A stretch of DNA of 32,000 nt from Aeropyrum pernix K1 (GTDB lineage Archaea; Thermoproteota; Thermoprotei_A; Sulfolobales; Acidilobaceae), in NCBI RefSeq assembly GCF_000011125.1, contig NC_000854.2, positions 180,001 to 212,000 on the forward strand. The letters run 5' to 3'. Of this stretch, positions 18,449 through 29,934 are shown one piece after another. Within the stretch, counting starts at the first letter, position 1. Each line of letters begins with the position of its first letter. The notes beneath the pieces were generated by a model. It worked only from the letters and a program-made list of their open reading frames with translations. It did not search any database and was not told where the DNA came from. Both the position numbers and the translations under genes were made by a program.

Positions 18449-18526
18449 GGGCCCGTAGCTCAGCCAGGATAGAGCGCCGGCCTCCGGAGCCGGAGGTCCC
18501 GGGTTCAAATCCCGGCGGGCCCGCCA
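18449..18526 (+). tRNA. tRNA-Arg (anticodon CCG), CCA encoded
   Basis: 78-nt cloverleaf: GGGCCCG-UA-GCUC-AGCCAGGAUA-GAGC-G-CCGGC-CUCCGGA-GCCGG-AGGUC-CCGGG-UUCAAAU-CCCGG-CGGGCCC-G-CCA. Confidence 0.95.
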
Positions 18527-18656
18527 TCAGACCCGCAAAACCAACACAAAACACCATAGAGAATATATCGATAATCGAGACCTCAGAAAGGCGCCGGGCT
18601 TTTTGCAGGATAGATTATCAGAAAGGATTTTATACATTAACATTAATTCTAGAAGA

Positions 18657-19091
18657 CTAGGGTACGACTTTTAGCCAAGGTATTCTCTTGAAGTCCTCAT
18701 CCAAGGTTGCTATTGTGTCTAGCTCGTGTTGTTTGCATGTTAATGCTATTAGTGCATCTGCTGGCATTAGGCCGTATTCTTCTATGAACTCGATTATTTC
18801 TCCCGGCTCAGCCATGAGCGGTAGTGTTGTGAAGAGCTTCAGTACAGGCCAGACTTCGCCCTTGATCATTTTTATGAGCCTCTCATCCCTCCTAGCTAGC
18901 AGCTTCCTTATTCTCCTAGCGCTTAATCCTGTTGCCAAGCGTAGGTAACCGTGTATAACCTCATCTATTACCAATGGATTAATGTAGCCGGTGATCTCAT
19001 GCCTCTCAACCTTCCTCATGAGATCTTTTGCTCTATCATCCTGGCCTGCAAGGAATGCTAGTATGATGCTAGTGTCCACGAATATCCTCAT
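18657..19091 (-). CDS. vapC: PIN-domain toxin VapC
   Basis: 144 aa with N-terminal MRIFVDTSIILAFL and C-terminal ...ADALIALTC...TLDEDF acidic residues typical of PIN. It overlaps the upstream antitoxin gene by 23 nt. Confidence 0.85.
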   Translation of the reverse strand: MRIFVDTSIILAFLAGQDDRAKDLMRKVERHEITGYINPLVIDEVIHGYLRLATGLSARRIRKLLARRDERLIKMIKGEVWPVLKLFTTLPLMAEPGEIIEFIEEYGLMPADALIALTCKQHELDTIATLDEDFKRIPWLKVVP

Positions 19092-19308
19092 CCTCTATCT
19101 CCTCTAGAACCTCTAGGAACTCTTTCTTATCGAGGTTTGGTCTGTGTTTTCTAGCGATGCCATAATATTTCTCGGCTATGGGCTCGCCCGGCTGTATTAT
19201 TACCTGAACCTCCTCGCCCTCCTGTAAATCCAGGGGCTCGAGAGGCTTTAGCACACCCTTCTCGTACTTTACCCGGATAACCTTCGACACGGTAGACACC
19301 ACTAGCAA
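19069..19308 (-). CDS. DUF104 (AF2212-like) antitoxin, VapB-type partner
   Basis: 79 aa. The KVIRVKYEKGVLKPLEPLDLQEGEEVQVII core is the DUF104 signature. It sits upstream of and overlaps the PIN gene. Confidence 0.8.
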   Translation of the reverse strand: MLVVSTVSKVIRVKYEKGVLKPLEPLDLQEGEEVQVIIQPGEPIAEKYYGIARKHRPNLDKKEFLEVLEEIEDEDIRGH

Positions 19309-19326
19309 TAGGATAGGATTGGGCCT

Positions 19327-20131
19327 CTAAGCTGTTACTTTATTTCTGAAGACAGTGTTGATTGGGCTTCCTTCAGGGTGTGGGGGTTCTAGGGTTCCTA
19401 GGTTGTGGTATGCTGCCTCCAACCTCCACCCCACGTTCTCAGCCATCTCTACTAGCTCTGTAAGAGTGTAGGTTCTTAGCGTATAGGTGAACTCGTCCAT
19501 GTAGAATAGGTCTTTGCCTAATTTCTTGTAGAAGACCCACCTGCTAGTGTGTATGGAGCGTATGGGGTCGAATACGGGATACCTGAGTGTGACGAACTCG
19601 GGGAATTCCCTCACGAATGGTTTAGGGCATCTACTACGGTGCTGGAGTATCTCCCGGCTCGTAGTGTTAGCTATCACCCACCAGTATACCGCCCGGCCTA
19701 ACTATATTCCTCACTCTCCTGAGTAATTCTAGGTCATAGTGGCGGCCTCTATAGCCTAGTAGAGTCGTCTAAGTTATGTATGCAGCATCAAATATTTGCC
19801 CGGTTAGCGTCTCATCTACTCTGTAGGCGTCTCCCACAATCGTGGTGAAGCCTTCTACACCCTCCTCCCTGGCCTTCTCCATCGCTCTAGCTATGAAGGG
19901 CTCCGAGAAGTCTAGTCATGTAACCCTGTAGCCTAGCTTTGCTAGTGGTATTGCCACCCTGCCGATTCCGCAGCCGGGCTCTAATATTGTGGAGCCTCGG
20001 GGGATGCCATGCTTCTCTAAGACTCTAGCCAGGTCCTCGGCTTCCCTCCTTCCCCTATCCCAGACACGCTCCATGATGGCCATGAATAGCTCGGCCTTCT
20101 CAACGAAAACCTCCCAAACCCAATCGTCCAT
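19327..20131 (-). pseudogene. Class I SAM-dependent methyltransferase, disrupted (at least 2 frameshifts plus 1 in-frame stop)
   Basis: N-terminal fragment 19916..20131 carries motif I (ILEPGCGIGRVAIPLAKLGYRVT). The middle part, in another frame (my translation), reads LDFSEPFIARAMEKAREEGVEGFTTIVGDAYRVD...AAYIT*...LELLRRVRNIVRPGGILV. The C-terminal fragment 19327..19677 is in a third frame. Confidence 0.75.
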
Positions 20132-20186
20132 AATAAAATCTCCCTCATGGGCTCTATCATGGCACTGCTAGGCTTTAACTTTATCA

Positions 20187-20291
20187 ATGTTGCATTATTA
20201 TCAGATTTACTGATCCAAGCCGATCTTCGTATCTGAGTGCATGTTGCATTCTATCATAAAGCAATGCAACGTGAGTATTTATAGCGTCGTT
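20187..20291 (+). repeat. Junction left arm, copy B
   Basis: ATGTTGCATTATTATCAG at 20187-20204 and ATGTTGCATTCTATCA at 20241-20256 are 54 nt apart. An inverted repeat GTTGCATT/AATGCAAC (20243-20250 / 20263-20270) and GTATTTATAGCG follow, directly abutting att copy B. Confidence 0.8.
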
Positions 20292-20336
20292 CTCCGGAGC
20301 CGGAGGTCCCGGGTTCAAATCCCGGCGGGCCCGCCA
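20292..20336 (+). repeat. att-like copy B: perfect 45-nt duplicate of the tRNA-Arg 3' half
   Basis: CTCCGGAGCCGGAGGTCCCGGGTTCAAATCCCGGCGGGCCCGCCA is identical to 18482-18526 (anticodon loop through CCA). Confidence 0.95.
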
Positions 20337-20446
20337 CAAACCACACAAAACTATCACAAAAACACCATAAAGAATATATCGATAACCGAGACCTCAGAAA
20401 GACGCCGATTATTTAGCTGGGCGGATTATCAGGAGTGATTCCATAA

Positions 20447-20655
20447 TTAATTTAGAATTAATATAGAAGGTTGGGGTATGACTTTTAGCCATGGTACTAT
20501 CTTGAAGTCTTCGTTGAATGTGAGTATTGTGTCTATTTCATAATGCTTGCAGGTTAGAGCTATTTGAGCGTCGTTAGGCAGGAGCTTATAGTTTAGGAGG
20601 GTTTTGGTGAATTCTTGATGCCTCTTAAACTCTATTAGTTTTGAAGGTTCATTAT
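20447..20655 (-). pseudogene. 5'-truncated vapC remnant (paralogue of 18657..19091)
   Basis: My translation is ...LLPNDAQIALTCKHYEIDTILTFNEDFKIVPWLKVIP, compared with LMPADALIALTCKQHELDTIATLDEDFKRIPWLKVVP* in the intact copy. The original stop is mutated and the N-terminal about 90 codons are missing. Confidence 0.7.
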
Positions 20656-28840: not shown

Positions 28841-28984
28841 GGTTATGCCTCGTCGCTCCCGGTGCCCGTGTCGCCCATCCAAACCACCTCTCTAACATTT
28901 TGCACAGGGAAGTATAAAAAGTGGCAGTGGAGAGGGTGAAACGTAAACACCCAGGAATAAAATGTTAGCTTGGAGAAGACTGTG

Positions 28985-29140
28985 GTAAAACCATCGGTCG
29001 GCAAGGAGACTCTCCAGCTGATCAAACGGGTTATCCTGTAGGAGGCGGGGAAGCTGGGAGTAGGAGTAGAGATGATAGTATTGCTTGGGAGTAGGGCCTG
29101 GGGCAAGGCCGGACTCGGACTGTATATCAGCAATAATATT
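28985..29140 (+). pseudogene. Minimal nucleotidyltransferase (MNT-type antitoxin) remnant
   Basis: My translation is KETLQLIKRVIL*EAGKLGVGVEMIVLLGSRAWGKA, then after a frame shift RPDSDCISAIIF. This is the GSxxxG...SD.D pattern of MNT proteins, interrupted by one in-frame TAG and one frameshift. Confidence 0.4.
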
Positions 29141-29157
29141 TCCGAGAACAACGCTAT

Positions 29158-29262
29158 TCAGGTCGACGATAGCTTTTCAAAGGTTTGTTCTGCCGGGCCT
29201 CTTTTCTCGGTTTCGAGGAGTATGCTGAGGATTATGCTCGTGTCGATGTAGGCGGTTTTCAT
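29158..29262 (-). pseudogene. Truncated PIN (vapC) remnant
   Basis: The 34-codon ORF MKTAYIDTSIILSILLETEKRGPAEQTFEKLSST* has the PIN N-terminal signature (compare MRIFVDTSIILAFL). It sits directly downstream of the decayed DUF104 gene. Confidence 0.55.
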
Positions 29263-29346
29263 TGTGTGTGTGCGCCTCTTCCTCAAGCTCTAATAGCTCT
29301 TTGATTGAGGATTTCCCGAGGGCTCCCCTATACTTCCTACGGACTT

Positions 29347-29484
29347 TCATAAGGTCGCGTTTACCGTTACCACTACCTCCTCGCCCTCCTCAAGATCCAA
29401 AGGCTCGAGAGGCTTTAGCACACCCTTCTCATATTTAACCCTAATAGCTTTAGATATCCCTATCTCCACCCTCCCTAACTGCAT
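29347..29484 (-). pseudogene. Frameshifted DUF104 antitoxin remnant
   Basis: MQLGRVEIGISKAIRVKYEKGVLKPLEPLDLEEGEEVVVTVNATL*. The expected C-terminal part (…KYRGALGKSSIKELLELEEEAH…) continues in another frame. The upstream region is near-identical to that of 25752..25979. Confidence 0.7.
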
Positions 29485-29510
29485 ACAGAGACTCTAAGCC
29501 ATTATCCTAG

Positions 29511-29590
29511 ATGTTGCGCTATTATCGGCTGGGAGAAGCCGGGAGTGGATGTTGCATCCTATCATGCACTAATGCAACATTAATTTATTT
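29511..29590 (+). repeat. Junction left arm, copy G (with internal deletion)
   Basis: ATGTTGCGCTATTATCGG at 29511-29528 and ATGTTGCATCCTATCA at 29549-29564 are 38 nt apart. A perfect inverted repeat GTTGCAT/ATGCAAC is present. Confidence 0.7.
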
Positions 29591-29622
29591 GTCCCGGCCC
29601 CGGAATCCCGAGGAGCCCGCCA
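29591..29622 (+). repeat. att-like copy G (strongly decayed, internally deleted)
   Basis: GTCCCGGCCCCGGAATCCCGAGGAGCCCGCCA is followed by a well conserved right arm (…ACCATAGGGAATATATCGGTAGCCGAGATCTCAG…). Confidence 0.55.
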
Positions 29623-29934
29623 CAACACAGTCTAAAACATTACCAAATACCATAGGGAATATATCGGTAGCCGAGATCTCAGGGTGCCGGCCCTTCGGCC
29701 AGGTGGGTTTCAGGGATGATTAAATGTTGCGTTTCTTCGCCACTTGTCCAACCGGTATACGTTGAATGGATCTACGGAGCCGTTGGAACCCAGCAGTTTT
29801 TCATCATAGCTTCATAAAAGGAGTTTATTTTAAATTTTCCTATGCTTAGGCGGCATTGTGGTTTTATTATGTGCGCGAGTCTGGTGTAATCATCAGTGTG
29901 GTACATGGGACATGCGTTTCTTCGAAGTTGTTTT

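Follow-up and report, generated by a model that had tools for sequence, protein, structure and literature searches.

Toxin–antitoxin cassettes in tandem behind tRNA-Arg(CCG) of Aeropyrum pernix, probably non-autonomous att-flanked units

In the 32,000-nucleotide (nt) stretch of Aeropyrum pernix K1 that we analysed (hereafter the window, whose own numbering gives all positions), an intact tRNA-Arg(CCG) gene is followed downstream by six further copies of its 3' half, all on the same strand, and these copies split the locus into six cassettes, A to F. The anatomy of a cassette is a right arm (P'-like), an operon antisense to the tRNA, a left arm (P-like) and a tRNA-derived core, and the operons are nearly always predicted type II toxin–antitoxin (TA) modules. 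Our favoured explanation, which we regard as somewhat probable, is that the locus consists of small non-autonomous att-flanked cassettes stacked at the 3' end of tRNA-Arg(CCG) through a composite attP-like site, with a recombinase working in trans and with the TA genes keeping the cassettes in place. No recombinase is encoded in the array itself, and arrays of the same architecture, with cassettes in differing order, are present in other genomes.

Results

The tRNA gene and its core copies

ARAGORN and Rfam agree on a single tRNA gene at the array, and this gene and the copies of its 3' half are as follows:

18449-18526 (+): intact tRNA-Arg(CCG), the docking gene (ARAGORN; Rfam tRNA, 68.5 bits)
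18482-18526 (+): att core within tRNA-Arg(CCG), the 3' 45 nt of the gene
20292-20336 (+): core copy B, 45/45 against the tRNA 3' half
22332-22380 (+): core copy C, 41/45, variant T-loop TCCCTAATCCC, no right arm after it
24080-24126 (+): core copy D, 39/45, variant T-loop
25101-25148 (+): core copy E, 41/45, variant T-loop
26114-26161 (+): core copy F, 39/45
29591-29622 (+): core copy G, degenerate, T-arm and acceptor part only with the anticodon part deleted (from the alignment)

Copies B to F lie well beyond chance: their local-alignment scores against the tRNA are 53-94 compared with a maximum of 28 over 20 shuffles of the window, they reach 39-45 matches to the 45-nt half compared with at most 37/45 in shuffled copies, and an nhmmer core profile gives E = 1e-7 to 1e-14 for the core copies. 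The tRNA-half copies reported by a first-pass annotation of this DNA are therefore real, and its count of seven junctions holds for B to F as tRNA matches, but G, with 27 matches where shuffling reaches up to 28, does not rise above chance as a tRNA match, is missed by the core profile, and is recognised solely through its flanks (left arm E=6e-21, right arm E=1e-18, nhmmer). Two other statements of that annotation had to be given up, namely, that all copies begin at the anticodon loop, a part which G lacks, and that they diverge progressively, given that the matches run 45, 41, 39, 41, 39, 27 along the array.

Across the junctions, the core measures 45-49 nt, and in BLAST searches of phage and plasmid sequences it was 97.7% identical over 43 nt to the annotated integration site (attP) of SSV1 (Sulfolobus spindle-shaped virus 1). 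The SSV1 attP is a proven tyrosine-recombinase substrate. The most conserved block over all junctions is CGGGCCCGC, contained in GGCGGGCCCGCC, a perfect palindrome in which the core ends on its 3' side, and a crossover may take place near this palindrome. The T-loop TCCCTAATCCC is indeed common to C, D and E, as first noted; it also recurs in an Aeropyrum-like metagenome contig (L037), with similar variants in an Acidilobaceae metagenome-assembled genome (MAG; L004) and in A. camini (L021), and for this reason we consider it an inherited core allele and not only the outcome of local decay. At the anticodon, the cores read CCG in B and D, CTG in C and F, CAG in E and GCG in A. camini J2, and the core of junction 2 in L004 has TCG, the same as its host tRNA-Arg(TCG); GGAGCCGGAGG around this variable anticodon stays constant.

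The junction arms

The arms were defined by an alignment of 19 junctions together with nhmmer profile searches, and in the window they are the following:

18527-18650 (+): right arm of cassette A, P'-type (nhmmer span 18529-18634, E=2.5e-26; pattern match; alignment)
20167-20291 (+): left arm of cassette A, P-type (nhmmer E=6.4e-28; motif matches)
20337-20445 (+): right arm of cassette B (nhmmer span 20337-20443, E=1.2e-24)
22216-22331 (+): left arm of cassette B (nhmmer E=1.3e-28)
23990-24079 (+): left arm of cassette C, weak type-2 (weak in alignments; missed by the type-1 profile)
24127-24234 (+): right arm of cassette D (nhmmer E=1.8e-18)
24983-25100 (+): left arm of cassette D (nhmmer span 24983-25097, E=2.3e-20)
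25149-25251 (+): right arm of cassette E (nhmmer span 25150-25251, E=3.4e-15)
25987-26113 (+): left arm of cassette E (nhmmer span 25987-26109, E=5.5e-24)
29492-29590 (+): left arm of cassette F (nhmmer span 29492-29596, E=6.1e-21; pattern match)
29623-29738 (+): right arm past the last junction (nhmmer E=9.7e-19)

The profile searches and the alignment agree with the first description of conserved arms, with a left arm that is weak at junction D and a right arm that is missing at C, where neither method found one. The weak left arm of cassette C is 73.6% identical to the J4 left arm of A. camini, and after core F, the first ~45 nt alone resemble the D right arm, with the GAATATATCGAT motif absent. 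The left arm measures ~125 nt and has, in this order, CTCTAAGCCTTTACCCTAG, ATGTTGCATTATTATCAG, ~35 nt with GATTATCA, GAGTGCATGTTGCATYCTATCATG-N-ATGCAAC and a TATA-like GTATTTATAGCG running into the core, so that its elements are two ATGTTGCAT-N4-TATCA, an inverted TGCAAC and a TATA-like box. The right arm measures ~105 nt and has a CA-rich spacer followed by ATAGAGAATATATCGATAACCGAGACCTCAGAAAGGCGCCG and GATTATCAGGAGTGATTCTAT. In cassette A, the right arm contains the CA-rich spacer, GAATATATCGATAATCGAGACC and GATTATCAG, and the left arm contains ATGTTGCATTATTATCAG, GAGTGCATGTTGCATTCTATCAT...ATGCAAC and TATTTATAGCG. Dinucleotide-preserving shuffles give an expectation of zero chance matches for the arm motifs, and the arms, which make up 3.8% of the window sequence, hold 5/5 of its ATGTTGCAT and 6/11 of its plus-strand TTATCA occurrences.

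As for what these arms are, the GTTGCA/TGCAAC half-sites show sequence conservation but no covariation, and folding of the junctions as single-stranded DNA gave z values from -3.7 to +0.4 with no shared fold; the arms therefore do not look like attC-type hairpins or RNA genes, and they resemble protein-binding and/or promoter DNA, a reading which the conservation of GTTGCA and TTATCA and their enrichment in the arms also fit. By its position, the left arm is probably in addition the predicted promoter and 5' leader of the minus-strand operon. The cassettes appear to carry promoter-like motifs of their own. Since there is no right arm beside the tRNA-Arg of A. camini, the right arm must be borne by the cassettes and is not the native flank of the tRNA.

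Another way of seeing the tRNA-half copies would be as functional RNAs, for example, decoys or antitoxin-like targets of a VapC that cleaves anticodon loops, transcribed from the upstream TATA-like box. There is a conserved TTTATA box 10-15 nt 5' of most cores (the real tRNA has GGATAGAG there), and most cores begin at the anticodon loop and adjoin PIN toxins. However, Rfam recovers only the true tRNA over the window and no RNA family at the junctions, the T-arms of C, D and E are disrupted without compensatory changes, the cores flank non-PIN cassettes too, and a start at the anticodon loop is the standard att boundary of integrases, as in SSV1, all of which makes this explanation very improbable.

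The cassettes and their cargo

Cassettes A to F are 1765, 1995, 1699, 974, 965 and 3429 bp long, with a GC content of 0.42-0.48 in A to E and 0.53 in F, compared with 0.55-0.56 in the flanks. A type II TA pair is intact in 5/6 cassettes, with differing families, and a remnant is left in the sixth (Pfam, tblastn); the layout is that of a pair of short genes, adjacent or overlapping and antisense to the tRNA, with the antitoxin gene lying upstream of its toxin partner. By family matches, the pairs are predicted TA modules of the PIN/AF2212-like (twice), DUF4258/DUF2283 and DUF3368/UPF0175 types, besides a PIN_2 toxin with a 66-aa open reading frame (ORF). The cargo is as follows:

18657-19308 (-): TA operon of cassette A, with VapC/PIN at 18657-19091 (Pfam PIN 1.3e-18) and AF2212-like antitoxin at 19069-19308 (4.2e-21)
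19327-20131 (-): methyltransferase pseudogene of cassette A, fragments 19327-19677 and 19916-20131 (weak Pfam methyltransferase matches)
20450-20650: decayed PIN remnant of cassette B, after the right arm (PIN_A tblastn match 20474-20650)
20817-21218 (-): HhH-GPD glycosylase fragment, non-TA cargo of cassette B (Pfam 1.7e-5, partial)
21692-22152 (-): TA pair of cassette B, DUF4258 at 21692-21928 (Pfam 1.4e-12) and DUF2283 at 21925-22152 (1.9e-21)
22422-22748 (-): PNP_UDP_1 phosphorylase fragment of cassette C (Pfam 8.3e-8, C-terminal part only)
23152-23926 (-): TA pair of cassette C, DUF3368 PIN-like at 23152-23670 (Pfam 5.7e-17) and UPF0175 at 23657-23926 (3.2e-26)
24280-24920 (-): TA pair of cassette D, PIN_2 toxin at 24280-24756 (Pfam 1.8e-14) and the upstream 66-aa ORF at 24720-24920
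25301-25979 (-): TA pair of cassette E, PIN at 25301-25759 (Pfam 1.4e-8) and AF2212-like at 25752-25979 (8.7e-20)
26831-28840 (+): 669-aa ORFan in the composite cassette F (cassette GC 0.53)
29182-29519 (-): TA remnant of cassette F, a truncated PIN N-terminus and an AF2212-like antitoxin remnant (tblastn)

The bias of the cargo towards TA genes, to which the first-pass annotation had drawn attention, is borne out by the TA pairs in nearly all cassettes, with the reservation that it is partly due to decay of the other genes. The methyltransferase, HhH-GPD and PNP_UDP_1 genes are fragments in the very cassettes whose TA pairs are intact, and intact homologues of such non-TA genes are found in L030, an Aeropyrum-like MAG, so that decay explains part of the bias: the two methyltransferase fragments align with both ends of an intact 263-aa gene of L030 (8966-9757) at 84-90% amino acid identity, and L030 also has an intact 230-aa PNP_UDP_1 gene (6038-6730), to which the fragment in the window gave no tblastn match. 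Cassette A is conserved elsewhere, with 88% amino acid identity of its TA genes to L030 and 81-88% DNA identity to L030, L037 and L038 (a second Aeropyrum-like MAG).

The TA remnant of cassette F is 86% identical to 25870-26014, and this PIN/AF2212 remnant is the ancestral part of a composite cassette. The 669-aa ORF in the same cassette was considered as a recombinase candidate and rejected. It has no match in Pfam, PHROGs or PDB sequences and a single far-sub-threshold one in NCBIfam (18.1 bits against a cutoff of 826), and its AlphaFold2 model (mean predicted local distance difference test score 84.5) is all-helical with two domains and resembles no fold of PDB or BFVD significantly. Its family has 31 homologous cluster representatives in 1.84e9 proteins, with full lengths of 636-719 aa.

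The junctions are thus supported as independent att-like sites and not pieces of one gene, as had been proposed, and the cassettes as discrete modules with conserved arms and cargo that is unrelated from one to the next. The cargo also bears on whether a segment of tRNA half and TA genes was duplicated in tandem on the spot and diverged afterwards. The direct repeats, their roughly regular spacing and the AF2212/PIN pairs in A, E and F would suit such an origin; nevertheless, it is effectively refuted by cargo families that are unrelated and cargo DNA that cannot be aligned between cassettes, and the same cassette types occur elsewhere in other orders, so that we give it hardly any credence.

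The array in related genomes

Arms were detected in L037 and L038 at E=1e-12 to 1e-19 with nhmmer profiles from whose construction both had been left out. A scan of 185,579 genomes for the right-arm pattern returned three archaeal MAGs, each with its match 35 nt downstream of a tRNA-Arg gene. In the Acidilobaceae MAG L004, a full arm-VapBC-arm cassette sits at tRNA-Arg(TCG) and the junction core carries TCG, and in two Desulfurococcales MAGs, only the tRNA-Arg and the right arm are visible. At the syntenic locus of A. camini, four more junctions come after the tRNA, with four cassettes whose cargo is mostly different, and L030, L037 and L038 have further arrays of the same architecture at tRNA-Arg. 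Minimal cassettes, made up of arm, TA pair and arm within 0.91-1.0 kb, number nine in five genomes.

The comparison of related genomes that the first-pass annotation had called for shows gain, loss and reordering of cassettes among A. camini, L030, L037 and L038. The order in A. camini is tRNA, cam-1, cam-2, and in L030 a cam-2-like cassette precedes a cam-1-like one (82% and 89% identity), with the homology between the two genomes stopping exactly at the cores; indeed, in every comparison, the homology breakpoint is the core 3' end (...GCCCGCCA|). In A. pernix and L038, the A-type cassette is the one next to the tRNA; in L037 it precedes the cam-2 type, and in L030 it follows it. L038 also has an inverted D-type cassette, 87% identical in DNA to 24608-25015, adjoining an inverted junction. 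From this comparative structure, we infer that the cassettes are mobile.

Serial addition at the tRNA, which had likewise been suggested, fits the polarity of the array. The distal junction and cassette are common to A. pernix, A. camini and L030, with 29182-29457 of the distal cassette F being 89.9% identical to cam-4 of A. camini (flanking genes, 77-81%), and the repeat nearest to the tRNA is perfect (45/45); a shared old distal end together with a perfect proximal repeat is what insertion at the tRNA, one cassette after the other, predicts.

Searches for a recombinase or a parent element

Pfam scans of ORFs revealed no recombinase domain in the array or anywhere else in the window, and in agreement with the first description, none of the cassettes contains an intact integrase (Pfam and tblastn). 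Searching the window and six related loci by tblastn with the integrases of SSV1 and the A. pernix spindle-shaped virus 1 (APSV1) gave matches only to the translated att core, and no Int(N)/Int(C) split integrase abuts the att copies at these loci. The same holds at a larger scale, since no integrase or integrase remnant lies beside ~27 junctions at eight loci (tblastn, Pfam), and PHROGs, phage and plasmid searches found no viral or plasmid backbone genes between the att sites. No integron integrase IntI, attI site or cassette promoter Pc was found, nor any recombinase in the window or within 10 kb of the A. camini array.

The first-pass annotation had also proposed to look for an integrase or element with a matching attP, and this search yielded none that carries the arms in phage, plasmid, IMG/VR and metagenome collections. 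Whole junctions searched by BLAST against phage and plasmid sequences matched in the tRNA-like core only (SSV/pSSVi-type integrases, and 36 nt of the APSV1 integrase) and never in the arms, arm patterns in IMG/VR and metagenomes gave only chance-level matches of ~30 nt, exact and loose core patterns in IMG/VR gave 0 matches, and a search seeded with the SSV1 integrase returned Sulfolobales proteins only. The SSV-type integrase originally invoked for this locus is suggested only by the 97.7% identity of the core to the SSV1 attP, but no split int gene accompanies it.

Surroundings of the array and isolated relatives

Beyond the last junction, no further core remnants were found from 29722 to the first syntenic gene, which is the helix-turn-helix gene 31409-31954, shared with A. 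camini. Between them lie a protoglobin gene (29991-30578) and a MarR-family regulator (30667-31257), both absent at the A. camini locus, and this segment, 29991-31257, may represent cargo that the same integration hot spot took up long ago. On the other side of the array is the following gene, whose homologues were used in a synteny search that found no tRNA-Arg/modA linkage outside Aeropyrum:

17456-18262: molybdate-binding protein (modA) gene, 5' of tRNA-Arg

Further upstream, two segments specific to A. pernix in the comparison with A. camini, 10207-12583 and 12834-15771, lie on either side of tRNA-Ser(GCT) at 12691-12778 (-). The 2.4-kb stretch directly 3' of this tRNA has a GC content of 0.43-0.46 and a DUF4145 ORF (10586-11218), and the 2.9-kb segment has an 810-aa ORF of the aldehyde:ferredoxin-oxidoreductase family; a repeat of tRNA-Ser was looked for in these segments and none was found.

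In Pyrolobus fumarii (CP002838.1 ~422,570; L031), there is a VapBC pair with 68% identity to the toxin of cassette A, adjoining a solitary 43-nt tRNA 3' fragment (L031 10530-10572) without arms, beside Cmr-type CRISPR genes, and this has the look of an old, isolated leftover of the same association. Homologues of the A-type VapBC in Pyrofollis and another MAG have neither arms nor core. In L038, a resolvase and Cas12f1/TnpB-like pair (8681-10631, IS607-like) lies ~6 kb upstream of the tRNA and probably has nothing to do with the cassettes.

Assembly and annotation deserve a word as well. Among the A. pernix short-read assemblies, a 1.8-kb contig corresponds to cassette A, cut at the 45-bp repeat, and draft assemblies will fragment such arrays; the contig L008, too, stops shortly past its right arm. 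The ARAGORN call of a 'tRNA-Arg(CCG)' at L030 12733-12811 (-) is an internal junction at a contig edge, consisting of the left-arm end and the core, and no real tRNA, so that tRNA counts in MAG annotations of such arrays may be too high.

Discussion

Weighing the origin of the cassettes

If our favoured explanation is correct, a cassette would exist as a circle of ~1 kb whose left arm, core and right arm together make up a composite attP-like site, ~280 bp long. Recombination of this site with the tRNA 3' half or with a resident core would insert the cassette, regenerate the tRNA and push the older cassettes distally, and the same reaction between two cores would lead to excision or reshuffling. 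The recombinase, not being encoded by the array, would act in trans and could come from a virus, a plasmid or the host; the left arm would act as a promoter and/or a protein-binding site; and the TA pairs would secure the cassettes through addiction as the remaining cargo decays. In favour of cassettes with a trans-supplied enzyme stand the absence of Int(N)/Int(C) at ~27 junctions and the non-coding nature of the arms.

Several observations weigh against this explanation and have to be set beside it. No helper recombinase and no free or autonomous element bearing the arms turned up in the phage, plasmid, IMG/VR and metagenome collections. L030 contains a 5.8-kb multi-gene unit without internal junctions, and the larger cassettes hold decaying non-TA genes, from which it follows that some cassettes may be larger elements that have shrunk. 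The Logan contigs of A. pernix (L025-L029) stop right at the perfect repeat of 45 bp. Between orthologous cassettes, the arms keep less identity (0.63-0.74) than the TA genes do (0.85-0.92), although arms of cassettes with unalignable cargo still share identities of 0.65-0.83, which together point to short constrained motifs with the rest of the arm free to vary. Finally, homologous recombination between the repeated cores and arms could give the same reshuffling.

The shrinkage of larger elements can be extended to the whole array, the cassettes then being once-autonomous proviruses or plasmids that integrated serially with integrases of their own and afterwards lost everything but the TA pairs, whose loss is lethal. 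The fragmentary state of the non-TA cargo here, next to the intact methyltransferase homologue and PNP_UDP_1 gene of L030, speaks for such a history, as do the 5.8-kb unit and the composite nature of cassette F, and there are precedents in documented integrated elements without an integrase (PMC8371274) and in the formation by decay of cis-mobilizable elements (CIMEs) in bacteria (PMC5704250). However, SSV-type Int(N)/Int(C) coding DNA would sit exactly where the arms are, and no remnant of it exists at any of the ~27 junctions; nine cassettes converge on the 0.91-1.0 kb layout with the same arm-to-gene offsets despite their differing TA families; and a survey of 73 elements did not observe tandem integration for the suicidal SSV-type integrases, the dominant kind in hyperthermophiles (PMC7253208). 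We therefore consider this history unlikely, and the absence of integrase remnants upholds the earlier opinion that the locus is not a simple row of decayed SSV-type proviruses.

Homologous recombination can also be made the sole agent, with no site-specific recombinase at work today and with the cores and arms (~250 bp, 65-100% identity) providing a portable homology through which cassettes would be exchanged, deleted, inverted and reordered, also once DNA from relatives has been taken up. This would agree with the searches made, in which no recombinase was found, with arms that are less similar than genes between orthologues, suggesting arm exchange or relaxed constraint, with the inverted cassette beside an inverted junction in L038, and with the junctions lost by deletion in L030. 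What it leaves unexplained is how unrelated operons came to be flanked by cores and arms in the first place, why breakpoints fall at the core 3' end (...GCCCGCCA|), why the Acidilobaceae junction has the anticodon of its own host, and why the array is new at its proximal end and old at its distal one, and we judge it decidedly unlikely.

Comparison with known systems

The array of trans-served cassettes that we favour shares features with several systems. Like SSV1-type (fusellovirus) integration, it has a core 97.7% identical to attP, direct 3'-half repeats starting from the anticodon loop and a regenerated tRNA; unlike it, the SSV attP lies inside the int ORF and is flanked by Int(N)/Int(C), whereas the arms of the array are non-coding and its cassettes are ~1 kb without viral genes. 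Because there is no split integrase gene, the array is not a row of SSV-type proviruses.

With integron arrays, that is, chromosomal superintegrons, clusters of attC sites lacking integron integrases (CALINs) and archaeal integrons (Ghaly et al. 2022, PMC9668308), it shares ~1-kb single-operon cassettes, a conserved site, variable order and a prominence of TA genes, and CALIN arrays, too, have no neighbouring integrase and can be served in trans; such arrays, including the integrase-less CALINs, do occur in archaea (PMC9668308). The differences are that the array has no IntI, attI or Pc, that its site is a tRNA-derived double-stranded homology with arms and not an attC hairpin, that its cassettes seem to have their own promoter-like motifs, and that its docking site is a tRNA gene. 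The comparison with integrons made in the first-pass annotation is consequently apt as regards short cassettes of variable content and order, and formally it does not hold, because there is no IntI and no consistent attC-like fold.

Closer in some respects are the bacterial CIMEs, which are att-flanked, have no integration or transfer genes and form tandem stacks at tRNA 3' ends by repeated site-specific integration (PMC5704250). The array likewise is bounded, at the 3' end of its tRNA gene, by att-type direct repeats and has no integration or transfer genes of its own. CIMEs, however, are bacterial and are regarded as decayed integrative and conjugative or mobilizable elements of many kb, whereas the array, which belongs to hyperthermophilic archaea, consists of TA units of a uniform 1 kb that have conserved arms and no known parent element; an origin by deletion as in CIMEs is what the decaying cargo and the larger L030 unit point to, and no autonomous relative bearing the arms was found in the collections searched. 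Tandem arrays of integrated tyrosine-recombinase elements as such are known in archaea and bacteria (PMC6563490, PMC8371274).

The tycheposon islands of Prochlorococcus also lie beside tRNA genes with several partial tRNAs, and newcomers push older elements inward (bioRxiv 10.1101/2020.12.28.424599). Tycheposons, in contrast, carry their own tyrosine recombinase and leave remnants that include fragmented integrases, while the array has no integrase fragment and almost only TA cargo. Integrative mobile elements exploiting Xer (IMEX elements), such as the CTXphi/TLC arrays at dif, are without an integrase and make use of the host Xer recombinase (Das et al. 2013, as cited in PMC6563490). They resemble the array as integrase-less elements in tandem at one chromosomal site that depend on a recombinase which they do not encode, and differ in that the site here is a tRNA 3' half and not dif; that a host enzyme is used in the array would be pure speculation. 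A literature search found no description of this Aeropyrum locus, and in none of the systems compared have TA units of a uniform 1 kb, with conserved arms, been described at a tRNA gene of archaea.

Conclusions

A bolder and more tentative reading, possible but in our opinion doubtful, is that Aeropyrum and its relatives have a tRNA-docked gene-capture system that would function in the manner of an integron while not being one, in which dedicated circular ~1-kb cassettes of one operon, usually a TA pair, would carry a composite attP of ~280 bp, made of a tRNA-Arg core and of arms bearing three or four predicted TTATCA/GTTGCA protein-binding sites. A recombinase whose gene lies elsewhere, be it host or viral, would insert, excise and shuffle them at tRNA-Arg genes. 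If this were true, the locus would stand for a hitherto undescribed class of mobile element in archaea, non-autonomous and serving as a platform for genes of defence and addiction.

The genomes of two Aeropyrum species have reportedly been compared and regarded as stable and poor in mobile elements. If it is the 1-kb units themselves that move, no smaller site-specific integrative elements would be known from archaea, and these units would be the archaeal parallel to integron cassettes, CIMEs or IMEX elements; they would also show how TA genes spread and build up beside tRNA genes. The ATGTTGCAT, TTATCA and GAATATATCGATAACCGAGACC motifs and the GGCGGGCCCGCC palindrome offer handles for finding the recombinase and an arm-binding factor, and the host is cultivable and carries two inducible proviruses, which makes the system testable. 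Even under a model of decay, the locus would be a clean natural record of how addiction drives the retention of TA genes.

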